Of a DNA stretch of 64,000 nt, positions 4,337 to 21,315 are shown in pieces. The translations under genes and the position numbers were made by a program. The notes below the pieces were generated by a model. It was given only the letters and a program-made list of their open reading frames with translations. It ran no database searches and was not told the origin of the DNA. Numbering within the stretch: the stretch's first letter is position 1; the number at the start of each line of letters is the position of its first letter. The DNA is from a virus. The stretch lies in the IMG/VR virus record IMGVR_UViG_3300020377_000001, positions 11,142 through 75,141 of that record; one strand, given 5' to 3'.

Positions 4337-4364
4337 TTTCTGCTCCTTCTCTGTTGGTAAGACC

Positions 4365-4412: not shown

Positions 4413-5144
4413 CTATATAGATCCTGTGTAGGTGTAGATGTCGCCCGACTTTGTGATTACGTCGAATCTTATTAGTTGATTGATTACGCTTCTGGATATT
4501 CGTCCATGTTTCGGTGTGAAGCACCCCGCCGGCGCAATCTTTGACAGGTCGTCAACTGTGAATGTGTCTCCGCTAGAATAGTGGAGCTCAATTTCATTGA
4601 TGAGCTTCCTTGCCTCGAGTGTTGGGTTTCGGTCGTAGTTGAATACGCTCATGCTTGGTCCTTTCGGGTCGTATGTTGTACAGGATTCACATCCTGTGTA
4701 TTTTTTGCTTCTTACGTTTTCGCATCGAGAAAAGCACCATCTGCAAACCTTATATCCACCCTTCACTCTGGGTGATTCAGGTCCAACTCTATTGAATTCT
4801 GATCCACAGCACTTGCACTTGAACCAAATATCGTAAGTCACCTCAACATGATCTGCAAACAGAAAGTCTGGTCGAATACGCGCCATTTCAGATCTTACGA
4901 CTGACTCAACAGACCTCCAGATTGCACAAAGCTTCTGGTCGGTTTTGTCGAGATAGTGTCCGTGACTATCCGCAAGAGCAATGTTTATTAAAGTGGGCCA
5001 GTGCTTTTCATCAACGATTTCTCGAATCATGTCCAGAACCCGCTCTTGGACTTTCCTCTTGGTTCCGAGGTTGCAGCTTGCATAAAGGTTTTTGGATCGT
5101 TGCGATGTTTGATTCTGCCTTTTCTGGTGCCTACTGAACCCCAT
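4413..5144 (-). CDS. Hypothetical Zn-finger protein with C-terminal winged-helix-like region
   Basis: CKCCG, CRWC, CESC cysteine pairs. Confidence 0.55.
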   Translation of the reverse strand: MGFSRHQKRQNQTSQRSKNLYASCNLGTKRKVQERVLDMIREIVDEKHWPTLINIALADSHGHYLDKTDQKLCAIWRSVESVVRSEMARIRPDFLFADHVEVTYDIWFKCKCCGSEFNRVGPESPRVKGGYKVCRWCFSRCENVRSKKYTGCESCTTYDPKGPSMSVFNYDRNPTLEARKLINEIELHYSSGDTFTVDDLSKIAPAGCFTPKHGRISRSVINQLIRFDVITKSGDIYTYTGSI

Positions 5145-5920
5145 TAGGCCGCACCAAGATTGATGCTGTCTATTTCACCGTCGTCATCTAGATGGGCCAT
5201 CTCAATAAGACCAATGTCTGTTTGCGTAATGCTCAGGAGTTTTGGCACTCTAGAGGGTGAACTATACGGAACCCCTAGCCTGTTCCAGATTTTTTCAAAA
5301 TATGGGATTGCTGGGTTTATTTTGTACAAACCTGAGGTAAATGGTTCGAGCTCGTTCAGGTCGAAAGATACAGTGGTTCTTACATGCATAGAGTCGTCGC
5401 GAAAAACAAATAGCGGTGACAACCCCTTATTCAGAAGCTTCTTGGCCTTAATGATGTCAACAAGGTCAATTCTCTTGATGTCTTCAGAGACAATGGAAAG
5501 CATCGCTTCAGCCAAAGAGCACATGGAGTTTGAGTTTTGAAGATACATCCAGTCTTGGCTCACAGGATCTCTCCACGTAAGAGATTTAAGCTGACCCCCC
5601 TCCTGATGGTGGCCCTTAATCACATCGCGTATAACGTCAGACCTAACCATGTCCAGGCACGTAGTTTGATCGAGTTCCAAGTATCTCAGCTTCTCAAGTC
5701 GAATCTTGGCTAACGTAATCAAGTCAAGGTTTGCCTGAGGGTGCAACGGTCCAGATGGGGACTCTGTCGGGGTATGGATCAGCCCTCGATCATTTAGTCT
5801 GCGTAAAAACGATACCTCGCAATTCATGCGCTCTACGATTTCACTTTCCGTTATCGTCTTTTCCATCGGCTCTTCTGCTCTTGGGAACACCCGGGGCCCC
5901 CGTGTTTGCTTTGGTTTCAT
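5144..5920 (-). CDS. Hypothetical protein, possible N-terminal MerR-like HTH
   Basis: ITESEIVERMNCEVSFLRRLNDRGLI; RBS GAAAGGACC. Confidence 0.55.
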   Translation of the reverse strand: MKPKQTRGPRVFPRAEEPMEKTITESEIVERMNCEVSFLRRLNDRGLIHTPTESPSGPLHPQANLDLITLAKIRLEKLRYLELDQTTCLDMVRSDVIRDVIKGHHQEGGQLKSLTWRDPVSQDWMYLQNSNSMCSLAEAMLSIVSEDIKRIDLVDIIKAKKLLNKGLSPLFVFRDDSMHVRTTVSFDLNELEPFTSGLYKINPAIPYFEKIWNRLGVPYSSPSRVPKLLSITQTDIGLIEMAHLDDDGEIDSINLGAA

Positions 5921-6024
5921 AATGGTCCTTTCTGTAACTTATTGGCAAACCCATGGGTCCGTATGGTGTTCCAGGCTTTGCCCTCATCTTTTTAAGTAGT
6001 TTACCTGTTTCATGAGTGGCCAAA

Positions 6025-8240: not shown

Positions 8241-8554
8241 GTGACAGGCCGTCCATGCTCTATAAAGGTTTTTTGATCTTGACGTAATTTGCGCTGTTTC
8301 TCGGTAGTTTCTTCGAGTAGCTCAGACCACTTTTCTCTCGTGTCTAGGTGATCTGAGGCCGCACGGAAGTCATCAAGAAACTCCATCAACTGGTGGTCCT
8401 TGATTGACTCGGCGATTTGATAGATTTTCTCGCAGGTCTGCTCTGTCCAGATCATGCATGGATCGCACCCGCCATCTGCCTGAGTATAGACGTACCCACA
8501 CTCGGTGCAGGTGATGTCATCACCCTCTGTGATCCAGTTGTCGTAAGATTTCAT
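8237..8554 (-). CDS. Hypothetical Zn-binding protein
   Basis: CTECG...CDPC; start MKSYDNW after AGGAG. Confidence 0.5.
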   Translation of the reverse strand: MKSYDNWITEGDDITCTECGYVYTQADGGCDPCMIWTEQTCEKIYQIAESIKDHQLMEFLDDFRAASDHLDTREKWSELLEETTEKQRKLRQDQKTFIEHGRPVT

Positions 8555-8757: not shown

Positions 8758-9050
8758 CTGATCCTCCGAATGTGAATCGAGGAGACGCCACAGCCTGGCA
8801 GGATGCCGCTGTGCTTCCCGTTGCCTGTGCCAAAGCGATTGACATGGACAGCGAAGTTCTCTGTAAGTTGGTCTGCTAGGTCCTCGCGTTGCCGGTGGCC
8901 AAGCCATTTCATGTCGGCATGAGTAACGAGCTTTGAGCCCTTGATGAGACGGTTTAGTGTTGCGACGAAGTCGTCAACCGTGTTGAGGAAAGTATAGTCG
9001 AATTTATTAGTCTGAGTATCTTCATATGCATCGATAAAATCTTTGAACAT
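8754..9050 (-). CDS. Hypothetical protein
   Basis: Start MFKDF after GAAAGGACCAAC; follows motif copy 9069-9099. Confidence 0.55.
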   Translation of the reverse strand: MFKDFIDAYEDTQTNKFDYTFLNTVDDFVATLNRLIKGSKLVTHADMKWLGHRQREDLADQLTENFAVHVNRFGTGNGKHSGILPGCGVSSIHIRRIR

Positions 9051-9119
9051 CGTTGGTCCTTTCAAAGGTCTATAAAGGTTTTTCTATTGTTCCGTAATTA
9101 AAGGGTTATGTCAAAAGTG

Positions 9120-9686
9120 TCATGCGTTATATAAGCCTTGCTCGTCTATAGGAATTTTACTCACCGAGTCAATAAACTCTTCAAATTGAAGCCTGACCTC
9201 CTTAAGGGTTTCAGCATCGTGAACCTGGCACAGGTAAACGCAATCACCATATTTGTACTCAAGGTCGCCTTCAAAGTATCCATGAGAATCCCCAGACACA
9301 TGTCCTGCAAGGATGCCATCGCAAAAGACCAGAAAACGGCGTGGTTCAAGCGCAGGTAAGGGATTCGATTGGACCTCGATCTGGATCTTGATCTTGTTTT
9401 TATCCCAGTCAAAGGTAGGTAGTGCAATGTTGACAAATGCATCAGAGTCAAAGACGATCATATCAAAGCCATTCTTGTGTGCGTATGAGAGCACCTTCGT
9501 TATCCATTCTGGCTCGCTTGAGTAGTCTTCGTATGGATCGAAGGATACGTACATGAAGTAGCCGTATAGAAACTTATACGCTGAGTGTGTGCCAAAGCTT
9601 GGCTCAGACGAAGGCATGTGTGCGGTGCTGATATGTAGTGTTCTAAATTCTGTTCGACAGGCGTTCTTAGGTCTTTGGTTATTCAT
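9120..9686 (-). CDS. DUF5983-like protein
   Basis: ISTAHM...YGYFMYV...IVFDSDA...LPTFDW pattern. Confidence 0.55.
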   Translation of the reverse strand: MNNQRPKNACRTEFRTLHISTAHMPSSEPSFGTHSAYKFLYGYFMYVSFDPYEDYSSEPEWITKVLSYAHKNGFDMIVFDSDAFVNIALPTFDWDKNKIKIQIEVQSNPLPALEPRRFLVFCDGILAGHVSGDSHGYFEGDLEYKYGDCVYLCQVHDAETLKEVRLQFEEFIDSVSKIPIDEQGLYNA

Positions 9687-9737
9687 GATGATAATGCTCC
9701 GTTGATTTCTATAAAGGTTTTCTGAGAGTGACGTAAT

Positions 9738-9926
9738 TTAGTCTTCCACATCCTCGGCATCGCAATCGCAGTATGAGCATGTAAAACACGCTGCATCTAC
9801 GAAGTGCCTGTCAACCGACTCGACAAGCCTGCGACGGTCATCTAAAGACACGGTTATATGAAAGTATGCCTCTGTCTTTGGGCATGTTCTGCTTTCGCAT
9901 TCTGGGTTACTACATCGTAACCTCAT
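9738..9926 (-). CDS. Small Cys-rich protein
   Basis: CSNPEC...CSYC. Confidence 0.5.
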   Translation of the reverse strand: MRLRCSNPECESRTCPKTEAYFHITVSLDDRRRLVESVDRHFVDAACFTCSYCDCDAEDVED

Positions 9927-10150
9927 TGGTCTACCCTGCTTTCAATCTCGTGAACAACCTCACCAGAATCATGTGACCATGCCACCACGCGCAGTGCGCC
10001 ATCCGCGTAATAGACACCGAACCGCTCAACGCCGTCGTCGTCCATGATCACCAGGGCGCCACCCTGCATCTCAATGGAGATGTCTGCACAGTCAACAGTG
10101 CCATCCCCGTTTGCGTCGTCACTAAGCCTTAAATCAATTCGCTGAATCAT
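9923..10150 (-). CDS. Hypothetical protein
   Basis: Start MIQRID, ATGA-coupled. Confidence 0.5.
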   Translation of the reverse strand: MIQRIDLRLSDDANGDGTVDCADISIEMQGGALVIMDDDGVERFGVYYADGALRVVAWSHDSGEVVHEIESRVDQ

Positions 10151-10278
10151 CGCGCACCCCCAGTCATTTTTTCTAGCCATTCGTTTGCCTCAACCTTGCA
10201 GACAAAGAGTCTGATCAGCTGATCGTTCCATAACCCCAACCAGCACTGATTTATCTCTGAGTACTTAACACTAATCAT
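10147..10278 (-). CDS. Small hypothetical protein (43 aa, not in ORF track)
   Basis: Manual translation MISVKYSEINQCWLGLWNDQLIRLF...; ATGA overlaps at both ends; RBS GAAAGGG. Confidence 0.5.
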   Translation of the reverse strand: MISVKYSEINQCWLGLWNDQLIRLFVCKVEANEWLEKMTGGAR

Positions 10279-10445
10279 GAGTAGTCCCTTTCAATGTAGG
10301 CCCAAACCTGGCCCATTTTGACCTCGCCGTGCTCGCAGGCAAGATCGTATGCCATCCTGTCTATCTCGTCTTTACAATCCTCTCGACTCCGAGCGACATA
10401 CTCTACGGTCGAGTTTAAGTTGAAGTTAACAATCACCACTTTCAT
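10275..10445 (-). CDS. Small hypothetical protein (56 aa, not in ORF track)
   Basis: Manual translation MKVVIVNFNLNSTVEYVARS...; RBS GGAGCA; follows motif copy 10460-10490. Confidence 0.5.
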   Translation of the reverse strand: MKVVIVNFNLNSTVEYVARSREDCKDEIDRMAYDLACEHGEVKMGQVWAYIERDYS

Positions 10446-10508
10446 ATCTGCTCCAATGCTCTATAAAGGTTTTTTAATCTTGACGTAATTAAGCTAACCG
10501 CAACATAA

Positions 10509-10862
10509 CTATACACTTCTCTGAATTGACTTGATTTGGTACACCACCGTGTACTCGAAGTCACAAGACGTACAGAATAATTGAGAATAAAACAGGGTAA
10601 GGCCGGCACAGTACCGTTCACCATCTGCCTCGATATTATCGCACCCACACTTTGGGCACGTACTTAACGCTCTATGAATAAGAGATTGCTCGTCTGTGGT
10701 CCTCTCAACCACTTTGACCACATTACGATTCTTGGATTTCAGGTGAGCGACGGTCTGATCACGAAAGTCATCGCCCCAGACCTCATCCACAACCGTGTAC
10801 CCATCGGCACCCTGGTGATAAACCGCGTAGCTTTTCTGTCTCTCTTCTATCTGATAGCTCAT
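10509..10862 (-). CDS. Hypothetical Zn-ribbon protein, first gene of the leftward block
   Basis: CPKCG...CTSC; start MSYQIE after GAAAGGTG. Confidence 0.55.
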   Translation of the reverse strand: MSYQIEERQKSYAVYHQGADGYTVVDEVWGDDFRDQTVAHLKSKNRNVVKVVERTTDEQSLIHRALSTCPKCGCDNIEADGERYCAGLTLFYSQLFCTSCDFEYTVVYQIKSIQRSV

Positions 10863-11007
10863 TCTGCCACCTTTCATTTTGCTCTCGGAAGTTCCAGAGC
10901 CGTTTTTGAGATCTGACGTAATCGCCGATCCCCAGGAAAAGTTTTTTCACTCTAGCCGCCCAAGTTCCACAAAGGTTTTTGGGATCGGCCGTAATTTCAC
11001 CCCCTAT

Positions 11008-11040
11008 ACGCGGGCGGGCGCACGCCCGCATCACCCGCGT
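11008..11040. other. GC-rich hairpin
   Basis: ACGCGGG...CCCGCGT enclosing CGGGCG/CGCCCG. Confidence 0.5.
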
Positions 11041-11118
11041 CATGAGGAAATTTTCGGCACTGCTCAAATGTTCAGCAATGAACGGATGTTCAGCACCAAC
11101 TATTTGCCCACATGAGAC

Positions 11119-11215
11119 CACATCGGATCACATTGTTGCCTCGAGAACCTACACGGGATCACATCGGATCACATTGTCGCCTCGAGCACCTACACAGGAT
11201 CACACAGGATCACAC
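11119..11215 (+). repeat. Two 41-bp tandem repeats plus GGATCACA sub-repeats
   Basis: CACATCGGATCACATTGTYGCCTCGAGMACCTACACRGGAT at 11119-11159 and 11160-11200, then CACACAGGATCACAC. Confidence 0.9.
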
Positions 11216-11529
11216 TATGGCACCGTGTAAGCGCACCGCCTACACACATGGCACCATTGCCACTATCTAAGGCTATTGGGTACGACCAAGGCGATCCAGT
11301 GCTCTACGGTGGCCAATATGTGAACAAAAGGCGCCCCACCTAGTAGAAAAATGTGATTTTTTTTAAGGTACTTTTATTAGTAAAAAGCCAATGATTGCAA
11401 ACACTTAGAGTCCGTCGCTCTGTTTCTGTTGTTTGTTTTTGTGATCATGTGGGTTGTGTTCCGTTGTTTATGGTGTACCATGTAGGGGTAACCGCTGGAG
11501 AGTTACGGAACAAAACGAAGGGAAATCAA

Positions 11530-11751
11530 ATGTTGGCACTTTTCACAATAATCGGAGCTTTCGCAGTAGTCGCCACCATCGGCGCCACCATCGGGACCAA
11601 GGGCCGACAGGTTGACGTTGGATGTACTCGACTGGTTGCGGACGAAGTCATCACGCTAACCGACGCCGAGATCTACCACCTACTAGACGACACCCAAGAA
11701 ATCGACGCAATCACCGACACACAAGAGATCACAGCTTTGGGAGGTTTCTAG
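11530..11751 (+). CDS. Small membrane-anchored protein
   Basis: Hydrophobic N-terminus MLALFTIIGAFAVVATIG; RBS AAGGG; DTQEI repeated twice. Confidence 0.55.
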   Translation: MLALFTIIGAFAVVATIGATIGTKGRQVDVGCTRLVADEVITLTDAEIYHLLDDTQEIDAITDTQEITALGGF

Positions 11752-11755
11752 ACCG

Positions 11756-11851
11756 ATGTTTAAAGATCTTGTTTTAGCTTTCATCATTTTGTCGTTGGTC
11801 GTCATGGCTGACGGAATTGTCAACGCATTGCTTGGGGGACCTATCCAATGA
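11756..11851 (+). CDS. Small single-TM protein (31 aa, not in ORF track)
   Basis: MFKDLVLAFIILSLVVMADGIVNALLGGPIQ; RBS GGAGG; ATGA overlap with next gene. Confidence 0.55.
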   Translation: MFKDLVLAFIILSLVVMADGIVNALLGGPIQ

Positions 11852-12183
11852 ACACCGCACAGACCACCACACCGCCCGCGCGACGTATTGCGCAGATTTT
11901 GAAGGGTTCAGCATTGATCGCCCTTGGGCCTTTCATTCTTGTCGCTTGTCCCGAAAACATCACGGCCGCGGCCCTAACCTTTTTAGGCTGCACCATTGTC
12001 TTCATCTTGATCGATCTGGTTTTCGGTGGAGATCTAAACCACGCGATTCGGACCCGATACGCTACCCAGATCGCCAAGGTTAAGAAGGCGCTAGGAGACT
12101 CAGACTTCCATGCACTAATCACACTTCCGGCCGTATGCCTGGCCGGCTTCATCATCATGACCGTTTTCGCGGTCTCACAATAG
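11848..12183 (+). CDS. Membrane protein (about 3 TM segments)
   Basis: Three hydrophobic stretches. Confidence 0.6.
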   Translation: MNTAQTTTPPARRIAQILKGSALIALGPFILVACPENITAAALTFLGCTIVFILIDLVFGGDLNHAIRTRYATQIAKVKKALGDSDFHALITLPAVCLAGFIIMTVFAVSQ

Positions 12184-12195
12184 GAGCACACAACC

Positions 12196-12693
12196 ATGAA
12201 CAAAGTAATTCAGACACAGGCGCCAGTCGGAGAGATAACCAGCGCGGGACACCGTCGCTTTTTAGTCGGTGAACTACTCAGCGCATTGATCAAGATTGAT
12301 GATCGATGCCACCACAGAAACGACAAGATCGACGAAACGGCCGCGATCTTTGCTGAGGCCGCCGCATGGGGGATTGAATACGATCTGGTGCTTGCCTATG
12401 GCCGAGCCATGGCAGACCAGGCGAAAGAGGACGCACGCCGACACATGCCCAGGACCGAGATTAACGGCATGCCGATCGTAGAGATGCGAAGAATCACAGA
12501 GGGACAGTGGATCTGTGCCGTTGACCGTTCGACCGTCAAAGATGTCTGTCACCCTAGATGGAGAGAAGGGGGCCGGACTTTCTGCGTCGTTAAGTGGGAC
12601 GGGATCGGAGACTCTTGGCACTATGCGATCGAGTATGACTTAACGCGAGACGAAGCGGTCAAGCTACTAAGGGAAAGGGTAGAAACAAGATGA
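12196..12693 (+). CDS. Hypothetical protein
   Basis: RBS AGGAGCA; operon context. Confidence 0.6.
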   Translation: MNKVIQTQAPVGEITSAGHRRFLVGELLSALIKIDDRCHHRNDKIDETAAIFAEAAAWGIEYDLVLAYGRAMADQAKEDARRHMPRTEINGMPIVEMRRITEGQWICAVDRSTVKDVCHPRWREGGRTFCVVKWDGIGDSWHYAIEYDLTRDEAVKLLRERVETR

Positions 12694-13007
12694 GCAGTTT
12701 ATATCGCTTCGAATATATCGTTGATAGTCGGCACGCCTGGTTGAAAGTCCGCGCGGACCTGCTAGATCGTCTCGGTATCGCTTCGCAGATCTCGAACTGT
12801 TCAAGAGTTTCACACGCTGAACGATGGATCTACCTGGACAAGACCACCGACGCGCCGACTTTCGATCGGGCGCTTCGAACTCTTCTAGGTCTCAATGAGT
12901 CGCAATATCTCGAATTTATGCGAGAGCGCACCCAGCTAAAGACGCCCGCGAAAGCGAGCCTTCGAAATTATGACCGCTACACCACCGCCGAAAGGATCAC
13001 AAAATGA
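12690..13007 (+). CDS. Conserved hypothetical phage early protein
   Basis: DSRHAWLKV...LGIASQIS...IYLD..DA..F resembles the D-x-x-HGWL-x-V family. Confidence 0.6.
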   Translation: MSSLYRFEYIVDSRHAWLKVRADLLDRLGIASQISNCSRVSHAERWIYLDKTTDAPTFDRALRTLLGLNESQYLEFMRERTQLKTPAKASLRNYDRYTTAERITK

Positions 13008-13948
13008 AGAAGGCACCGAAGAAGGGGATCAAAATTCCGGTCATCCTCGACAAGTGGGCCACCAGTAGAGCCCGCGCAACTCAGCAGCTTGACGGAACAT
13101 TCCAAGTGACGAAGATCGATCGGAAGACAAAGAAAGAGATCACGTACACGCAGAAGCCGAGCGATGCGACGATCTCAACCTGTACCGATAGCAGCGGGAA
13201 CGCAAAGCTGCGAAAAACGCTTGCCATCCTTCGCGATGTTTACGGATGGATTGACCCGGTGATCGGATCGTTTGCCTTGCCCGCGTACAGTGACGGCAAC
13301 GGGGGAAAGATCTGTCACGGGGCGTCAGACTGTTTGGTATACTGCTATGCGATGCAAACTAGATACGTCATGCCCCAGGCAAGCGATCTCAGATTCCGCA
13401 ACTTGATCACGCTAGAACGCGCCCAGGAACGCGGCGGAGTTGAAGCTATGACCGCCGAGCTAGTGAGAATTTTCAAGCACTGGATCAAATACAAGACGGG
13501 GCGATCGCGGAATATCGCGCTCCGCTTGCACGACTCAGGCGATTTTTTCAGTCAAGACTATGTCGACGCCATGGCCGCAGCGGTCACCCAGGTGAGGCAA
13601 TGGGCACGCGATGAAATGGGAATCACTCGGTTTGTTCCGTACGCCTACACAAAAAGCCTACACCTCAACCTTGAGCCACTTTGGAACGCAGGCGTCCAGC
13701 TTGTCCAAAGTCACGGCGGAAAGTTTGACAAGCTGATCGACCCACGGAAACCGATTGCACAGGTGGCAGGCAAGGGCCAGCCGATGCCGAAGGGATGGAA
13801 AAGCGGAAACAGTGACGAGCACCTAGAATGCCTAGCCATCACAGGCTACCCGCGGATCTGGTTACCGTACCACGGCAACCACTCAGAACCTAAATCCTTA
13901 ACGGCTCGCCGCGTTGAATTATTCCAAATCACCGAAAGGAGCGCATAA
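13004..13948 (+). CDS. GP88-family protein (Cys-cluster, radical-SAM-like)
   Basis: GNAKL, FALPA, C-x5-C-x3-CYA, RLHDSGDFFS, YAYTKS. Confidence 0.8.
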   Translation: MKKAPKKGIKIPVILDKWATSRARATQQLDGTFQVTKIDRKTKKEITYTQKPSDATISTCTDSSGNAKLRKTLAILRDVYGWIDPVIGSFALPAYSDGNGGKICHGASDCLVYCYAMQTRYVMPQASDLRFRNLITLERAQERGGVEAMTAELVRIFKHWIKYKTGRSRNIALRLHDSGDFFSQDYVDAMAAAVTQVRQWARDEMGITRFVPYAYTKSLHLNLEPLWNAGVQLVQSHGGKFDKLIDPRKPIAQVAGKGQPMPKGWKSGNSDEHLECLAITGYPRIWLPYHGNHSEPKSLTARRVELFQITERSA

Positions 13949-13949
13949 G

Positions 13950-14174
13950 ATGAACCGCGAACAAACCAGGATCGAAAATTATGGCCGGTGTGTGGCTGAA
14001 CTTATCCAAGCCCAGCGCCGAGCATACGAAAATGGCCGGTTTACCTTCGAAGAGATGCGGAAAGCAAACCTCGCGATTTGGAAGGGCGCCGAGGAGATAG
14101 ATCCAAGAATCACCGATCGGGCCGTTCAGTTGATCGGCGAGTATCGATGCACACGGACGGAGGCTATCAAGTGA
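13950..14174 (+). CDS. Hypothetical protein
   Basis: Start MNREQ after AAGGAG. Confidence 0.55.
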   Translation: MNREQTRIENYGRCVAELIQAQRRAYENGRFTFEEMRKANLAIWKGAEEIDPRITDRAVQLIGEYRCTRTEAIK

Positions 14175-14428
14175 AATTCTACATTCTTTACGGCAAAGGG
14201 CCGACACATAAGCAATTCAGGCCGATCGACTGTACAACGGGAAAACGGGAGATCAATTTCCTAAACGTCACCGTGTTCGATGAAAACGAAGCCCAGGCCG
14301 TCCGCGAAGACTTCGGCCAGATGCACGCAGAAAACCCCGGGTGGTGTTTTGAGTTACGGCATCGGTTCAGCATGGACGAAAAGAAACTAGATGAAGCGGT
14401 GCAAACCGTGAAGGAGCGCAACAAATGA
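14171..14428 (+). CDS. Hypothetical protein
   Basis: GTG start after GGAGG, GTGA overlap. Confidence 0.5.
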   Translation: MKFYILYGKGPTHKQFRPIDCTTGKREINFLNVTVFDENEAQAVREDFGQMHAENPGWCFELRHRFSMDEKKLDEAVQTVKERNK

Positions 14429-14682
14429 ACACCACAACCAAACCACAACCGCGAATCGTTCGCGCTTATTACGTCGCACGCTATCGGCTCGCAGCCTGGA
14501 TCGCCTCATGGGCTTTTGTTCAGCTTGTCACAGACTTGGCGATCGAGAAGGTGACCGAAGACCAAGACGATCGGATCGTTGAGTGTGAAGAAGCGATCGA
14601 ACAATGGGATGACCGACTGACCGCAGTTGAAGAACTAGCCGAAGCAAACGATCGGACTTTGGACGAGATGGCCAACGGTTGA
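14425..14682 (+). CDS. Hypothetical protein with acidic coiled coil
   Basis: RBS AAGGAG; last gene before a terminator. Confidence 0.55.
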   Translation: MNTTTKPQPRIVRAYYVARYRLAAWIASWAFVQLVTDLAIEKVTEDQDDRIVECEEAIEQWDDRLTAVEELAEANDRTLDEMANG

Positions 14683-14707
14683 CCCAGGACCACCACCAAG
14701 CAAACGA

Positions 14708-14731
14708 GCCGGCCACATGGTCGGTTTTTTT
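14708..14731 (+). terminator. Intrinsic terminator
   Basis: GCCGGCC-ACAT-GGTCGGT with the final T starting a T7 run. Confidence 0.75.
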
Positions 14732-15811
14732 GTGTCTACCGTTCGACAATTCAACACGGCCTCGAGGACCGCAGACACACCAACACACCACACAGCAGAC
14801 GAAGCCGAGATCGGCGATTTAAGCGACGCAAAGCAAAAGCACCACCGCAGACACGCAAAGACAGCCGAAACGGCAGCAGACGCCAAGCACGGCACACACA
14901 CGGACAAACGAACCACCGACCACCGACGCAAGATCAAACGATGCACTCGGAGCGATTGAGCCCAGGACCACGATCCACGGTTCGAGCTGAGTAGGAGACC
15001 GCGCCCCGATGCACTCGGAGAAGGTGACCACGGGTTACCATCGACCGGCGAAGACCACCACTACCGATCGCGATTGCTCGCCACTGGTACACATTGCCAC
15101 GTCTATCGATTGATCCAAACTTGATCCCTTTGCAAGGTGAACACGTACCGAGAACAAGGCCCACAGATACCCAGTAGAGCCCGAAAACGACCGTATAAGC
15201 GATTGAATACCACTAAAGGCTAGCCCAGGACCTAAAGAGACCACAGCGGAGCATAGGCGCCCAATGTGCAAACCTTCGCGGGATATGCTGGCGGACTGGT
15301 TGAGGTTTGGCGGATGTGTCGGGTTTGGTTTGGGGTTATTGTGGGTTTGATGGATGGCAGCGGAAGGCCGATCGAGGCTGCCGAGGTAACCGCCCTTTAG
15401 TGGGTCACCGCCTCGGAGAGTATCGGCACAGCCTCGGAGATTGTCGGAGACTGTGAACGGATGCCCAGTTTATCGGGTTGGATGGTGCTTTGTTTCGCAT
15501 ATCGTAAACAACCGACCGATCGGTTACTGGTGAAGCCTACCCTATACGCACACAATCAGGCACCCCGTGGGGACTGGAAAGGGGTTTTAACATAGCGGAC
15601 AACCCCCATGACAGCGAGATCTGAAAATTGGATTCCAATGCACTGTTATGAACCAAATGCCAGCCTTCTGAGCGACGTTATGACCCAAACATGAGCCGAT
15701 GTATAGGTTCACCTATCTAAATTGAATACAGAGGAGTTCTCAGCCTTCTAAGGTGATTTGTGTCACCTAGTTTTGGCTACCTTCTTTGTCGAGCTCTAAA
15801 TATATCTTGAT

Positions 15812-15890
15812 TGGAAAGTAGGGAGTCCCCATGAAAGGACCAACAAACCTGAGGACTCCCAATGTCACAACGGAGCAGTTGATGACTCAC
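15812..15890 (-). ncRNA. Candidate two-hairpin sRNA with anti-Shine-Dalgarno loops
   Basis: Hairpin 1 GUCAUCAAC-UGCUCC-GUUGUGAC; hairpin 2 GGGAGUCCUCA-GGUUUGUUGGUCCUUUCA-UGGGGACUCCC followed by UACUUU; upstream TTGAAA-N16-TACAAC. Confidence 0.5.
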
Positions 15891-15974
15891 TCAGTTGTAC
15901 CAGCAAATCAGATTCTTTCAACCAATCAATTCTGAGCCCCATCTCGATTGAGCACTGAAGGGGGGTTTGGGGGG

Positions 15975-16100
15975 TAGTAATGTTTAGTAGTTTTTTAAGT
16001 AATAGATTTAGAGAGTATACACCTAATTGGTTTACTTAGTTATAAACAACTAAGTTAGTTATATATATATATATATATTATTATACTAATTAGTTAGGGG
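15975..16100. other. AT-rich origin-like tract
   Basis: (TA)n run, ACTTAGTT/AACTAAGT inverted repeat, flanking G runs. Confidence 0.4.
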
Positions 16101-16210
16101 CGCTAAGTGTCTGAAAGCAAAGGGGAATACGCTCAGTATCTATTAAATGGATACAGGATGCAAAAGGATTGAATACAGGATCAATTCTTTCCTCAAGTGA
16201 TTACAGGTGC

Positions 16211-16717
16211 TTACGCTATCTGGATGCCGATTTGTAGCCATTGATTACAATCGGGGTTTTTGGGCATAAATTTAGGATCAAGTCGCCGCTTTTCGGACTC
16301 TGTTATGAGTCGGAGGTTTTTGCGTTCGAGAGCATACTCGAGCTCATCGACAGACTTGGCTCCGATGCCCGGTTTCTCGAGCAACTCACGTCTTGTAAAT
16401 TGAACGACGTCTCGGACCTTGCCTGCCTGTATGCACGTCGCAATTCGGTTTGCGGTCTTGGTGCTGATTTCGAGTCGATGGATTCCGCTTTCAAGGATTG
16501 AGTCTTTGTCAATTCCTCGAACATTCGCTTCAAAGGTTCTGCCGTTGGGCGACATTCCTGTAATCTTCGATTTGGCTGCGTGATAGTTCAACTTCAAAAC
16601 TTCAGATCCGTCCTCAGAGTAGAAAATGAGCCCCTCACCAGTTTGCTGCCCATAGCAAACGAGCTCTTCACTCGTTAAGGGATCAAAGACAGTAATTGTC
16701 TGTGTCGGCCTCGTCAT
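16211..16717 (-). CDS. Protein with RNA polymerase alpha-subunit C-terminal domain
   Basis: IHRLEISTKTANRI...VRDVVQFTRRELLEKPGIGAKSVDELEYALERKNLRL aligns with alphaCTD VDDLELTVRSANCL...[37 protein letters not shown]. Confidence 0.8.
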   Translation of the reverse strand: MTRPTQTITVFDPLTSEELVCYGQQTGEGLIFYSEDGSEVLKLNYHAAKSKITGMSPNGRTFEANVRGIDKDSILESGIHRLEISTKTANRIATCIQAGKVRDVVQFTRRELLEKPGIGAKSVDELEYALERKNLRLITESEKRRLDPKFMPKNPDCNQWLQIGIQIA

Positions 16718-16883
16718 CGGTCGTTCGTCTCAAAATGTTTTTGGATTAACCGATTATAGGCATGGTTATGCTCAGTTTTGGAAAAAAAGGCGCATTTTGG
16801 GGACATGGTTGTGATAAAAACAAAAAAATCCCACTTTTCGCGGACGCATGATATCGGTATTTGTTTTACTTAAAGGAGTTTAA

Positions 16884-17528
16884 GTGTCTTTTGAAATTAG
16901 ATCGATAACCAGAACCGAGGCTTTGCCGTTATTTCAAAGGTATCACGGGTATAAGTCAATGGGGGGCGTCTGTACATATCTATTCGGAGTATTAGAGCGC
17001 GGTTCTGTTGTCGCTGCGTTCGCCTGGCAGCCTCCAGCGGCAGGTTGTGCCAGATCTGTGCTTCCTGATGCCAGTTACGGTGTTTTATGCTTATCTAGAA
17101 TGGTGGCTGTCCCAAAGGAAGAGCGTAATCTACGACACCTGTCAAAGCCTCTGCGATTTCAAGTGCGAAATTTAATAGATAGGGGGCGATGGCCTGCTTT
17201 GGTCACATTCTCAGATGAAGGCTTGGGGCACACAGGGCACGTATACAAGTGCTCTGGATGGAAAAAAACCTCTCGAAAGAAGCGCTCACAGTTCATGGAC
17301 AAAGAAGGCAGAAGGACTGCACCGTATAGTGACGGAAAAAAGGTAGAAGGGCTGATTAAGGTAGGGGCAGCCTATATTCAGCGGTGGGAGAAGCATGCTG
17401 TTCCACCTGAAGAGGCTGCAGGCTGGATTGAGGCAAACGGTTGGCGGCGTGAAGCGATCCCAGGAAAGTTCTGGTCATCAGGCAACCAGGCTTATCGGAT
17501 GTCAAAACAGCAATCCATGCCATTTTAG
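16884..17528 (+). CDS. Mom-family (GNAT-fold) DNA adenine modification protein
   Basis: IRSITRTEA...YHGY, CLSRMV, LVTFSDEGLGHTGHVYKCSGW; RBS AAAGGAG. Confidence 0.7.
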   Translation: MSFEIRSITRTEALPLFQRYHGYKSMGGVCTYLFGVLERGSVVAAFAWQPPAAGCARSVLPDASYGVLCLSRMVAVPKEERNLRHLSKPLRFQVRNLIDRGRWPALVTFSDEGLGHTGHVYKCSGWKKTSRKKRSQFMDKEGRRTAPYSDGKKVEGLIKVGAAYIQRWEKHAVPPEEAAGWIEANGWRREAIPGKFWSSGNQAYRMSKQQSMPF

Positions 17529-17601
17529 CCTCTTGGAATCATTAGGAAAATCCGATCGAGTGTGGCATACAGATTCTTGTGCCGCTACAGAAAGGACCGA
17601 C

Positions 17602-18423
17602 ATGAAATACACAGGCAAAAGCGTTCTGCGATACCCGGGTGGCAAGACAAGGGCAGTCTCTCTGATTATGCCATTTCTTACTCGATTCGAGGCAAAGGTG
17701 CTGGTGTCCCCGTTTTTTGGTGGTGGGTCGATAGAGTTTGCTTGGGCTCAGCAAAAGCCGAGTTGTCGTGTTGAGGGGTATGATATCTATCCACCGCTTG
17801 TGGCGTTTTGGAGGGAGGCTCTGTCAAACCCAGGACCTCTAAGCAACAAGGTTGACGCCTATCGACCAATGGACAAGGATTTGTTCTTATCACTACAGAA
17901 GAAGCTCCCAAGCCTTTCTGGGCGGGATGCTGCTGCAGCGTTCTATGCCCTTAACAGGTCTAGCTTTTCGGGCGCCACAATGAGTGGAGGGATGTCTCCA
18001 GGCGTAAAGAGGTTTACAGAGAGCTCAATACAAAGACTTGCCGATTTCCATGCGCCGAATGTGAAGGTTCGACTAGGCGACGTGTTTGACGTTGTCGAAG
18101 ACCTCATTGACTCAGACCCTGAAGACTCGGTGATATATCTGGACCCCCCATACAAGATTGATGACTCGGCTTTATATGGACACAAAGGAAACGCACACCG
18201 AGGATTCGAGCACGAAAGGCTGGCCGAGCTAGTGCATAGACTGAACGGTAAAGGATTTCGTCTGGTTTTAAGTTACAATGACAGTGATTCAATACGAGCG
18301 CTGTATAGCCGCTATTTGATCACTCCGTTGTCTTGGTCATACGGGATGAAGAATGTGGCAGGAGGCTCGATGGGCTCATCTTCTGAGCTTTTAATTTTGT
18401 CGGAACCCTTCAGTACCCAATAA
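17602..18423 (+). CDS. dam: DNA adenine methyltransferase (D12/Dam class)
   Basis: RYPGGK, PFFGGGS, YLDPPY, SYND; start at MKYTG after GAAAGGACC. Confidence 0.9.
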   Translation: MKYTGKSVLRYPGGKTRAVSLIMPFLTRFEAKVLVSPFFGGGSIEFAWAQQKPSCRVEGYDIYPPLVAFWREALSNPGPLSNKVDAYRPMDKDLFLSLQKKLPSLSGRDAAAAFYALNRSSFSGATMSGGMSPGVKRFTESSIQRLADFHAPNVKVRLGDVFDVVEDLIDSDPEDSVIYLDPPYKIDDSALYGHKGNAHRGFEHERLAELVHRLNGKGFRLVLSYNDSDSIRALYSRYLITPLSWSYGMKNVAGGSMGSSSELLILSEPFSTQ

Positions 18424-18511
18424 AATGTAAAGTGAGCACTAAATAGTAGTCGTTATGACTATTATATTTTTCGGTTTGCTCGTTTATGTTATCAAGCGTT
18501 CAGGGGGAGTG

Positions 18512-18619
18512 ATGTATAAAGAAATATTCAAGGAGATATTTTTTGGGTGTGCTGTGTATATGTTTGGACTTGCGGTTACCGTAGGGACGATTGCATATGT
18601 TTTCTATGAGGGCCGGTAG
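18512..18619 (+). CDS. Small single-TM protein (35 aa, not in ORF track)
   Basis: MYKEIFKEIFFGCAVYMFGLAVTVGTIAYVFYEGR; RBS GGGGAG. Confidence 0.5.
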   Translation: MYKEIFKEIFFGCAVYMFGLAVTVGTIAYVFYEGR

Positions 18620-18624
18620 CAAAA

Positions 18625-18993
18625 GTGTCGTTTCCAATTTTTTTCGAAAATAGTCGCTTTGCGACTATCCTTTACAAGATTTCTCCTGGGGAGCTATATG
18701 CGTTCAGCTTTGGTCCCTGGGTCTGGTCTCGAGGGCCAATGTCAGATCGGCTGCGCCTCCATGAAACGATTCACTGGAAACAGCAACTCGAGCTCCTGTT
18801 TTTGGGTCAATGGGCATTAGTAATCTTGTTCTATATATTCAATATCGTCCGATACAGATCCGCGTTTCACGCATATAGGAATTCGCCATTCGAACGAGAG
18901 TCATATGATAATGACAGGAACGAAAATTACCTTTCTGAGAGAAGGAATTACGCATGGTTGAGATACCTTAAGAGGTCAACTCATGACTTCTAA
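18625..18993 (+). CDS. HExxH membrane-associated protein
   Basis: LHETIHWKQQLE, TM segment, AYRNSPFERE. Confidence 0.65.
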   Translation: MSFPIFFENSRFATILYKISPGELYAFSFGPWVWSRGPMSDRLRLHETIHWKQQLELLFLGQWALVILFYIFNIVRYRSAFHAYRNSPFERESYDNDRNENYLSERRNYAWLRYLKRSTHDF

Positions 18994-19186
18994 GGGGATC
19001 TCGGCGCCGCGATGGTTTGCCTTGCGGAGCAATGAAAAGAAAAAGGCTAACACCCAAAAAACAATGACGACGAATAGAAGGGTCGCTTTGAGGGAGGTGC
19101 CGATGTGCGCTGAATGTGGGGCTAGAATGTCTGCAACACCAGATGGGTTGGTATGCTATGAGTGTGGGTCTACCCATGTTTCATAG
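18983..19186 (+). CDS. Small Zn-ribbon protein
   Basis: CAECG...CYECG. Confidence 0.55.
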   Translation: MTSKGISAPRWFALRSNEKKKANTQKTMTTNRRVALREVPMCAECGARMSATPDGLVCYECGSTHVS

Positions 19187-19247
19187 ACTTCAAGGAATCT
19201 TATCTGTGGTTATTCAGGCGACAATATCTTGCATCGAGGGGTGGAAG

Positions 19248-19559
19248 ATGTCGGATGGCGGATTTATAGGCGGAGGTGTTTATGCCTTGCCTGAGTCTGC
19301 CTTTTCTGATTGCGATACGCAGATGATTGAATATCGGAACCTCATCGTTGAGTACATGAACAATACCGGTATCCAAACATCTCGTGGCGGTTGGCTGTGT
19401 TGTCAGGCAAACTTCCCTAGTAGAAAGAGCGGATTTAGCCCTGAGCTCATATGGTTTGCTCGATGGTTGCCGATAAATGATGGGGGTGGGCTCATAGTCG
19501 TCACCCCAGGTAAGGACCGTGTCTATGAAAATGTTAAAGAAGCAGAAGTATATAAATAA
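19248..19559 (+). CDS. Hypothetical protein
   Basis: Start MSDGG after GAGGGG. Confidence 0.5.
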   Translation: MSDGGFIGGGVYALPESAFSDCDTQMIEYRNLIVEYMNNTGIQTSRGGWLCCQANFPSRKSGFSPELIWFARWLPINDGGGLIVVTPGKDRVYENVKEAEVYK

Positions 19560-19938
19560 ATGCCTGCACCTCGGGCAGAGCCTGTACGCCAAGTTGGTTA
19601 GAAGCGCCGACTATCATAGGCGCAGCATATCGCAGGAAGCGTGCTTCTTGATGGAGCTGGGCATGAGCGCCCCTCTTCCTCCCGACATGTCCGACACCCA
19701 GATAGATGATATTAACGGGCGGTTTCAGTGCTATTTAGACCCAGGTCTATGTAAGAGGCTTGAATCGCTCGCAGCAGGCATGCAGCCGCACCTGAAGAGA
19801 CCAAGAATAAGCCCAGTGGCTCGAGCGTACATACGTGTGGGTTTTGCAATGCAACACAAACTGTTTCACAGTTCAGACACTGGGCACCTGTGGCCAAACG
19901 ATAAATACAAGCGGGAAATAGTTGGACCGCAAAGATGA
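19519..19938 (+). CDS. Arc/RHH-like regulator with tandem domains
   Basis: LHLGQSLYAKLVRSADYHRRSISQEA and CYLDPGLCKRLESLA. Confidence 0.55.
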   Translation: MSMKMLKKQKYINKCLHLGQSLYAKLVRSADYHRRSISQEACFLMELGMSAPLPPDMSDTQIDDINGRFQCYLDPGLCKRLESLAAGMQPHLKRPRISPVARAYIRVGFAMQHKLFHSSDTGHLWPNDKYKREIVGPQR

Positions 19939-20765
19939 AAGGATCAAAAATGGGTGAATTACAAATTAGGACATTCAGAGACCAGTCTACGGACAGGACC
20001 GAGGTTTACGAGCTTTGCGCTAGGTTTGCGTGTGACGTCCTAAGCATGATTGATGATGCAACTGGGACAGATCCAGAGAATGGATCGCCAGAGGTGGCCG
20101 AAGAATATCTTCGATTTAGAAATTGGTTAGGTCCCAACATTGTTCAAATGACGCAATCTTCTGTAGTCGGACCCCTTTTGAGCGGGTTGACTGTTTTTGA
20201 TGATGGGAGCGCTTCGTTTGTGGGCGGCAATTTTACATCCAGAAAGCATAAAGATGTAGCCATGGGCACGGAAGGAAGGATTCGGTGGATCTGTTCAGAG
20301 GTGCCTTCGTTAATAGATGCTTACGGTGAGCTTTATGAAGAAGAGGTAGAGCCAGCAATCAAGCTTGTTGAGCGTGCATCTTTTATGGTTGAGAATGGCG
20401 CAAACCCAGAGGACCTGTATGAGATTGTGGAAGAGCTTGAGACACTGTACCTGCACTGCTCCCCTGGTGCTAGGTTGGTGAGAGGTGATGAGAAGGCTAT
20501 TGCGTCTGCAAGGGACACTTGTATTGAAGCGGTTGCATTTATCAACAAGGAGTATGAGAGAAGGTCCAAAATTCAGTGTCAAATTGACGCTGGCGAGGTG
20601 GAAGGCGAGACCTCTGAGGAGAAGATATCAAACGCAAAGCGTATGCTCGAGTTCACCGAGGACCATATCGAAGAGACTTCTCGTCGCCTAGAAGCGCTCA
20701 ACTCAAACCGCAAAGCAATCCTTGCGGAAATCAAGGAGTACGAGAGGATCAGGGATGGCAGCTAG
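19935..20765 (+). CDS. Hypothetical protein with C-terminal coiled coil
   Basis: 276-aa ORF in operon. Confidence 0.65.
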   Translation: MKGSKMGELQIRTFRDQSTDRTEVYELCARFACDVLSMIDDATGTDPENGSPEVAEEYLRFRNWLGPNIVQMTQSSVVGPLLSGLTVFDDGSASFVGGNFTSRKHKDVAMGTEGRIRWICSEVPSLIDAYGELYEEEVEPAIKLVERASFMVENGANPEDLYEIVEELETLYLHCSPGARLVRGDEKAIASARDTCIEAVAFINKEYERRSKIQCQIDAGEVEGETSEEKISNAKRMLEFTEDHIEETSRRLEALNSNRKAILAEIKEYERIRDGS

Positions 20766-21315
20766 ACCGCTTGGGATATACTGTGCCGTGGAGCCTTTGG
20801 AGCAGGGTCAGGATTTAGTAAAGTCGGGCTCTATTTTTAAGCCTATAGGCTCTGCGTCTGTTGCGTTCGTGTATGGAAAAGTACTTGCATGTGGGCGAGA
20901 TGTAAGAGACATTCAGCCCGGAGACGTTGTTGTCTACGAGGTTGGCAGTGGTCATCCTGGGTTAAGCTGGGTTATGGACGCCGATACGTTCGGTGGTCAA
21001 GAGGGCAAGTACGCTACGCTCGTGCCCTGCTATCAGAGACCTTTGAGGGTGATGTCTGAGGATATGGAGGAACTCCAGAAGAGGGAGTCTCGAATCAAGG
21101 TTCTGCAGGAGCTCGATGAGAATTTTGGATTAAAGCCTGAGCATCAGGATGAGTTGATTAGACACAGTATTGCCGCCAACAGGATTATGAAAAGCCATGA
21201 ATCTTCTGCGACAAATCGTCAGTACTTTACCAAGAGATACAAGGATCCTGGCAAGGGACGGGGCATCATAGGGGTTGTGGAAGTTGCGGAGGAAGGTACC
21301 ATTCTGGATCAGTGA
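20755..21315 (+). CDS. GroES/Cpn10-like co-chaperonin with large insertion
   Basis: RPLGIYCAVEP...KSGSIFKP...GKVLACG...IQPGDVVVY and terminal IIGVVE. Confidence 0.7.
   Translation: MAARPLGIYCAVEPLEQGQDLVKSGSIFKPIGSASVAFVYGKVLACGRDVRDIQPGDVVVYEVGSGHPGLSWVMDADTFGGQEGKYATLVPCYQRPLRVMSEDMEELQKRESRIKVLQELDENFGLKPEHQDELIRHSIAANRIMKSHESSATNRQYFTKRYKDPGKGRGIIGVVEVAEEGTILDQ

Follow-up and report, generated by a model that had tools for sequence, protein, structure and literature searches.

Several bacterial small RNAs—RsaE/RoxS, RNAIII, LhrC, CcsR/Cuckoo, and 6C—carry a copy of the 16S anti-Shine-Dalgarno (anti-SD) sequence in their hairpin loops, which pair with the Shine-Dalgarno (SD) sequences of several mRNAs. 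In phages, the shut-off of early genes involves RegA-type repressors, nucleases, and changes to RNA polymerase. Phages also encode antisense RNAs: the targets of c4 lie just downstream of it in the same operon, and OOP adjoins the replication-origin region of phage lambda. To our knowledge, each of the known phage antisense RNAs (c4, sar, and OOP) controls a single gene or operon. The c4 antisense RNA of phages P1 and P7 is about 77 nt long, and its loop sequences pair around a ribosome binding site (RBS) and block translation (reviewed in PMC12197685). The sar RNA of P22 and the OOP RNA of lambda are 68-77 nt long, have their own promoter and intrinsic terminator, and repress a phage gene by pairing (PMC12197685). 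In virulent Pseudomonas phages, 29 candidates for non-coding RNAs derived from 5' untranslated regions (5'UTRs) have been detected by ONT-cappable-seq (PMC10914365).

Here we describe a candidate RNA element from an uncultured phage, known as a viral contig from marine metagenomes, and compare it with these systems. This contig is 75,141 bp long and has direct terminal repeats; its bases 11142-75141 make up the window, by which we mean the whole stretch of DNA that was analysed (64,000 nucleotides). Proteins encoded on the contig include a terminase, a gp23-like capsid protein, a giant protein of the tape-measure type, and a TubZ-like protein, together with Mom-like and Dam-like proteins and a serine recombinase. 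The element sits in a gap of about 1.5 kb that is poor in open reading frames (ORFs; 14685-16210); on one flank of this gap a plus-strand operon ends at 14682 and is followed by a canonical terminator at 14706-14727, and on the other stands a lone minus-strand gene (16211-16717) with an RNA polymerase alpha-CTD-like domain.

A single relative of the region was found in the JGI metagenomes: the contig L042, which is collinear with the window. Phage records, searched in near and distant modes, contained no relative of the region, and neither did plasmids or genome contigs. In IMG/VR, queries with four DNA patterns, three neighbouring proteins, and one protein alignment also yielded no relative; the pattern hits were chance matches, and a single protein (L002, 33% identity) gave a weak, partial hit. 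In P0001 and P0003, a neighbouring protein is 96% and 65% identical, respectively. A third, more diverged relative is present in a contig from the seawater DNA run X11, which holds closer and more distant variants; this relative is known from its contig ends and from the part corresponding to 15833-15883, the sole part that aligns at 85% or more.

The surroundings of the element offer several observations in their own right. The Mom-like gene (16884-17528) is missing in L042, where window positions 16808-17534 face a gap at L042:1400-1402, and the alpha-CTD-like gene directly adjoins the region of the Dam-like gene. The Dam-like methyltransferase of the window probably starts at ATG 17602, with the RBS GAAAGGACC, and not at 17395, because in the long ORF the Pfam D12 domain does not begin until residue 80, and this longer version overlaps the Mom gene. 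In the alpha-CTD-like gene there are 88 mismatches to L042 with codon periodicity (53/20/15), so that about 31% of third codon positions differ (53/169). In contrast, the roughly 950 nt at 14700-15650 show no codon periodicity in their substitutions against L042 and so are truly non-coding; about 14% of positions differ there, less than the figure for third codon positions. This stretch contains CA-rich repeats, a 21-nt tandem pair (15406-15447), three copies of CCCAGGACC, and two of CGATGCACTCGGAG. The assembled contigs of three metatranscriptome runs from the same samples, the probable source, were compared with 9000-21000, and four stretches were covered at 100% identity (10010-10161, 13100-13257, 19572-19787, and 20107-20269), which means that the phage, or carried-over phage DNA, was present in the RNA libraries. 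Standard RNA libraries lose RNAs of about 75 nt, and the comparison is uninformative for an RNA of that size.

On the minus strand the element consists of a promoter-like site, two hairpins, and a short U-tract (Table 1). These parts had been described in a first-pass annotation made from the DNA letters, and they are present at 15921-15813, with the earlier coordinates one base off in places. The hexamer TACAAC lies at 15899-15894, separated from TTGAAA by a 16-nt spacer, and a TG one base upstream of the hexamer extends it to TGGTACAAC. Measured against the sigma-70 consensus, which asks for 16-18 nt between the hexamers and for A at position 2 and T at position 6 of the -10, TTGAAA matches at 5/6 positions and TACAAC at 4/6, the final T being absent. 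A scan of the window did not show TGGTACAAC to be a recurrent phage promoter motif. Hairpin 1 has an 8-bp stem with one bulged U and presents loop 1, UGCUCC, at 15877-15872; hairpin 2 has an 11-bp stem that includes one U.G pair and presents an 18-nt loop 2, GGUUUGUUGGUCCUUUCA, at 15849-15832. Both hairpins occur in the minimum-energy (MFE) and centroid structures of the minus strand (-28.3 kcal/mol; z = -2.0, modestly better than shuffles), and both loops are unpaired in these structures; hairpin 1 is less robust when folded in longer contexts. The plus strand folds less well (-24.6 kcal/mol). The comparison supports the minus strand as the better candidate, since on the plus strand stem 2 has a C.A mismatch in place of the U.G pair, and the promoter-like site and U-tract are found on the minus strand only.

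A simple consensus scan called neither a promoter nor a terminator at the element—the promoter because the -10 hexamer is without its final T, and the terminator because the loop is too long (18 nt) and the U-tract too short (4 U in 8). Rho-independent terminators are recognized by a G+C-rich stem whose loop spans 3-8 nt and which is followed by 8 nt with at least 5 U; the 11-bp stem in the window is adequate by this measure, and the loop and the U-tract fall outside it. A partial terminator after hairpin 2 stays plausible given the longer U-tracts of the two relatives, with 6 U in 8 in L042 and U6 in the third relative. Two larger structures were considered and rejected: pairing of the 5' tail with the 3' tail in an outer helix is broken by two L042 substitutions, and folding of 15640-16000 as one larger structured RNA gave z = -0.35. 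In Rfam there was no hit at gathering score across the window and none of relevance at E up to 5 within 14400-16400, nor was there a relevant hit on L042 at E up to 2; by this search, the element belongs to no catalogued RNA family.

Table 1. Positions, in window coordinates, of the parts of the candidate element, of its surroundings, and of its predicted pairing sites at translation initiation regions (TIRs).
Feature	Position	Strand	Remarks
-35-like hexamer TTGAAA	15916..15921	minus	Read directly; same in L042; no call in consensus scan
Extended -10-like TGGTACAAC (TG-n-TACAAC)	15894..15902	minus	Read directly; same in L042
Hairpin 1, GUCAUCAAC-UGCUCC-GUUGUGAC	15864..15886	minus	MFE and centroid folds; invariant in L042
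Hairpin 2	15821..15860	minus	Found in every fold tried; inverted repeat; invariant in L042
Short U-rich tail UACUUUCC, weak terminator tract	15813..15820	minus	Read directly; no terminator call in window
phrog_8676 gene remnant (last 9 codons and stop)	15767..15796	minus	Alignment with L042
Non-coding block holding the element	15650..16150		94-100% identical to L042; 23 mismatches in 501 nt
Best predicted loop-2 target UGAAAGGACCAAC	9052..9064	minus	13 nt, UGAAAGGACCAAC-G-AUG, AUG at 9050; duplex -23.4 kcal/mol
Best predicted target of loop 1 and 3' stem arm, CAACGGAGCA	9695..9704	minus	10 nt; about 8-9 nt before AUG 9686; -17.2 kcal/mol
Loop-2 match GAAAGGACCA	5923..5932	minus	RBS of gene 5144-5920
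Loop-2 match GAAAGGACCAA-GC-AUG	4655..4665	minus	11 nt; additional to the earlier list; 2 nt before candidate ATG 4652 inside ORF 4413-5144
Loop-2 match GAAAGGACC	17590-17598		Dam gene; 3 nt before in-frame ATG 17602
Match GAAAGGAC	4170-4163	minus	
Match GGAGCAGU	6643-6636	minus	Loop-1 match, TIR 6633
Matches GGAGCAG	near 4340 and 10448		Loop-1 match at TIR 4336

The hairpins and loops are conserved in the relative that covers them in full. L042 keeps both hexamers, both stems, and both loops unchanged, next to coding flanks that are 72-90% (about 85%) identical. Over 15819-15936 there are three mismatches to L042, and these fall in the linker (15862), the 5' tail (15889), and the promoter spacer (15903); two further changes in the U-tract lengthen it to UAUUUUCU. 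The roughly 30 nt right after the U-tract, which hold the old RBS of a gene now deleted from the window, carry about 8 changes, a rate that is near neutral. The stems, identical in the window and L042, show no covariation, and L042 stops short of the predicted target genes. Additionally, the 500-bp block around the element (Table 1) is as conserved as the element itself, so that conservation in L042 is not specific to the RNA; the conservation of the block could reflect a DNA-level function or recent recombination.

The third relative adds a more distant point of comparison. Its aligned part, 15833-15883, takes in most of hairpin 1, the linker, and, from hairpin 2, the 5' arm of the stem and loop 2. 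On the minus strand this part is preceded by ...CCCG-TGGTACAACTG-GGGUGGCU and followed by UGUGGGGCUCCC-AGUUUUUUCC-AUCUGGAG, and the third relative thus keeps TGGTACAAC within the 11-mer TGGTACAACTG though the flanks differ. In this relative the -10 site has been kept while its flanks diverged, the loop-bearing core is the best-conserved part of the element, and the U-tract is U6.

The comparison with L042 also points to the origin of the element. Between window positions 15805 and 15801, L042 has 208 extra nt, which make up most of a 78-aa ORF (L042:2417-2653) on the same strand as the hairpins, with the RBS GAGGGA and an ATG 23 nt after stem 2. The ORF matches phrog_8676 (E 2e-23), and 29 phage records contain homologues of it, among them those of a pelagiphage and of Methylophilales phages. 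The window retains a remnant of this gene (Table 1), and the direct repeat GATTTGGA flanks the missing piece in L042, which together indicate that the window lineage deleted the gene. In L042 the gene follows hairpin 2 so closely that there is no room for a promoter of its own; read-through would be needed, which makes the element a leader there, and hairpin 2 would then be no tight terminator in that phage. The element is, on this comparison, ancestrally a leader. The layout of a 5'UTR-derived RNA or attenuator, with a same-strand gene directly downstream of the U-tract, is found in L042, and in the window that gene has been deleted. Folding did not support sequestration of the SD of the L042 gene by the leader. 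The hairpins and promoter-like site have remained unchanged while the old RBS diverged after the deletion, which argues for a function of the RNA unit that is independent of the downstream gene.

The loops mirror the RBS types of the phage's own genes, as the first-pass annotation had noticed: of the SD-bearing 8-mers in the TIRs of the phage, GAAAGGAC is the most frequent, and GGAGCA ranks 4th of 48. All of the RBS matches that it listed were recovered, at coordinates that differ by 0-1 nt. The 13-nt match is contained entirely in loop 2. The 10-nt match at 9695-9704 takes 4 nt from the stem of hairpin 1 in addition to the loop, so that hairpin 1 must open for this pairing.

Some of this complementarity is trivial, as loops containing UCCUUUC or CUCC touch many SD sites; loop 2 exceeds that expectation. 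In controls that kept the anti-SD core and had their flanks shuffled or redrawn, a longest loop-2 match of at least 13 nt has P 0.001-0.005, at least 8 TIRs with matches of at least 8 nt to loop 2 have P 0.004-0.011, and a loop-1 match of at least 10 nt has P 0.03-0.05 with match counts that are not significant, all of these P values being nominal and post hoc. We also compared loop 2 with 951 SD-bearing TIRs from 160 unrelated viral loci. Matches of at least 8 nt occur at 7/56 of the phage's own SD-bearing TIRs (12.5%) and at 13/951 of the unrelated ones (1.4%), a difference of about 9-fold; matches of at least 9 nt occur at 3/56 and 0/951, respectively. The earlier suggestion that pairing extends beyond the SD core thus stands for loop 2, and the complementarity of loop 1 on its own is marginal.

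The strongest predicted pairings are grouped in the genome. The three best duplexes of loop 2 are with the TIRs at 9050, 4652, and 5920, and those of loop 1 with the TIRs at 9686, 6633, and 4336; all six are inside a minus-strand block at 2.5-11 kb that is home to 22 of the 89 TIRs. The two best targets (9050 and 9686) belong to adjacent genes, and each lies just behind a copy of the motif AAAAACCTTTATAGA, at distances of 4 nt for the target at 9052-9064 and 3 nt for that at 9695-9704.

This motif is part of a bipartite sequence, AATTACG(T/G)(C/A)A...AAAAACCTTTATAGA, that is found repeatedly in the minus-strand block, 16-25 nt ahead of start codons. Copies of the AAAAACCTTTATAGA motif are found on the minus strand at 8259-8271, 9069-9081, 9708-9720, and 10460-10472, with weaker ones at 5079-5091 and 10966-10978; the bipartite motif has 8 matches within 2 mismatches against 1.3 expected, and it is probably the promoter or operator of the block. 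In an unrelated 75.7-kb IMG/VR contig (L045:11327-11370), GAAAGGACCAACAAACC is followed 9 nt later by GAAAGGACCAAC-TA-ATG; the extended RBS string of this contig is the same as window 9052-9064, and no protein of the locus is similar to those of this phage.

We propose that the element is a minus-strand RNA unit with a weak, sigma-70-like extended -10 promoter, TTGAAA-N16-TGGTACAAC. Its transcript would start near 15888 and fold into the two hairpins; at least some termination would take place in the U-rich tract that follows hairpin 2, so that the RNA would measure about 70-80 nt. The ancestral role of the unit would have been that of a promoter-proximal leader of the small phrog_8676 gene, as it still appears to be in L042; the window phage deleted this gene and kept the RNA unit, which therefore appears to serve some function independently of the gene. 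The likeliest such function would be the pairing of the open loop 2, and less surely of loop 1, with the SD regions of the phage's own minus-strand-block genes—the genes starting at 9050 and 9686 as first candidates, then those at 5920, 4652, 6633, and 4336. Pairing in vivo would lower the translation of the targeted genes, which may be early ones.

The first-pass annotation had gone further and proposed a multi-target translational switch acting in trans. The conservation of the element, its fold, and the excess complementarity of loop 2 are in line with that proposal; the weak terminator and the fact that in L042 the element leads a real gene are not. A trans-acting anti-SD small RNA that silences genes of the minus-strand block is our tentative reading, which we regard as possible rather than probable, and given the apparent leader role in L042 the notion of a discrete 75-nt trans-acting RNA would be one reading among several. 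Several of the results above weigh against it: the stems, invariant across both available sequences, offer no covariation; the -10 hexamer is without its final T; the long loop and short U-tract make a poor terminator in the window; transcription in L042 must read through into the gene; and the surrounding 500-bp block is equally conserved. Loop 1 is marginal, the z-score of the fold is only -2.0, and the P values, computed post hoc, are nominal.

The other readings differ in whether the RNA, the DNA, or neither carries the function. The element may act only in cis, as a leader, attenuator, or partial terminator of the alphaCTD-like/phrog_8676 unit that sets read-through or mRNA stability; the RBS match would then have no regulatory role, being for example a relic of shared sequence origin. 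An RBS directly after the U-tract in L042, and apparently in the third relative as well (CUGGAG after U6), fits this explanation, as do U-tracts that are retained or stronger in the relatives, and short RNAs from premature termination in 5'UTRs are common candidates in Pseudomonas phages (PMC10914365). However, the window has no downstream gene and its RBS has decayed, yet the hairpins and promoter-like site are unchanged; moreover, the extended complementarity of loop 2 is unlikely to be due to chance, and folding shows no obvious sequestration of the L042 gene's SD by the leader. We consider a role confined to cis somewhat unlikely, and a plain leader or terminator role about as likely as a small-RNA role. 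The hairpins might instead be part of a DNA-level element: the conserved non-coding block at 15650-16150 could be a control region, for example one that binds proteins or serves as a replication origin. The identity of the whole block to L042 would be expected of such a region, and the block also contains a palindromic (TA)n stretch at 16043-16097, inverted repeats of 25 nt at 16000-16024 and 16121-16145, and direct repeats of short length (GGATACAGGAT at 16148-16181, CAGCCTTCT[G/A]AG, and GATTGAATAC). The cumulative GC skew reaches its minimum around 10-16 kb, a signal that is confounded by the switch of gene orientation. That conservation stops exactly after the U-tract and returns beyond the deleted gene speaks against this reading, as does the U.G pair, which points to pairing of one RNA strand; no initiator gene or origin was identified, and we judge a DNA-level element improbable.

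An element with no function of its own would be one whose block had recently recombined between the two phages, its RBS complementarity going back to an old duplication, in inverted orientation, of part of a TIR. Phage genomes are mosaic, there is only one full relative, the window and L042 differ by indels of the Mom gene and the phrog_8676 gene, and 11-nt inverted repeats are not rare in the window (40 pairs). Recent recombination does not readily account for the roughly 30 nt past the U-tract, which diverged near-neutrally inside an otherwise identical block, or for the third relative, which is more diverged and keeps the -10 site, the loop region, and the U-tract; we hold the absence of function to be quite improbable. 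A functional plus strand is very improbable. Its loops read GGAGCA and AUGAAAGGACC, which had led the first-pass annotation to offer a CsrA/RsmA-type sponge RNA with GGA loops as an alternative, and an ATG, with GGGAG lying 5 nt before it, begins a frame of 34 codons (ORF 15831-15935) that might encode a 34-aa protein. The sponge alternative found no support, as stem 2 has the C.A mismatch on this strand and there are only two GGA motifs; in addition, there are two terminator-like sites upstream (14706-14727 and 15751-15768), and a pattern scan found no plus-strand promoter. The small protein was rejected: all three of the L042 substitutions (3/3) change the amino acid (N>S, H>R, and A>T), and the start codon is lost in the third relative, where the ATG reads ACA.

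The element is an in-silico candidate from an uncultured marine phage. If the preferred reading, a trans-acting anti-SD small RNA, is true, an RNA that silences several unrelated early genes through their RBSs would add a layer to phage gene timing. Its distinctive form would be a several-target phage RNA whose loops combine a copy of the ribosome-docking sequence with phage-private flanks, and which acts as a temporal switch on early-block genes, having arisen as the leader of a gene and outlived that gene; we consider this full picture doubtful, if conceivable.

Among the described systems, c4 of P1 and P7 would be the closest in mechanism, and the 5'UTR-derived RNAs of Pseudomonas phages the closest in layout. 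Like c4, the element is phage-encoded, lies upstream of same-strand genes, is of similar size, and has two candidate pairing segments; in contrast, there is no homology to c4 in sequence or structure (no Rfam hit for the element at E up to 5). The best matches of the element lie 6 kb away in another transcription unit, and the downstream gene in L042 is unmatched, which sets it apart from the arrangement of c4 and its targets. Whereas c4 controls one antirepressor operon, the element would act on several unrelated genes. The element may also lie beside an origin, a likeness to OOP; however, sar and OOP are both cis-antisense RNAs encoded opposite their target, and there is no gene opposite the element. 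It has no Rfam match to any of the bacterial small RNAs with C/U-rich loops. Its loop 2 is U-rich (UCCUUUC) rather than a C-run as in the bacterial anti-SD RNAs, and has the phage-specific flanks GGUCC and GUUGG; unlike those RNAs, the element is phage-encoded and its candidate targets are phage genes. The Pseudomonas phage candidates rest on transcript data, whereas the element is predicted from sequence. Their layout—promoter, short structured RNA, premature terminator, gene—corresponds to the arrangement in L042; the window differs in that the downstream gene has been lost and the RNA unit kept, which makes this pair of phages a natural experiment in the retention of an RNA unit after the loss of its downstream gene.
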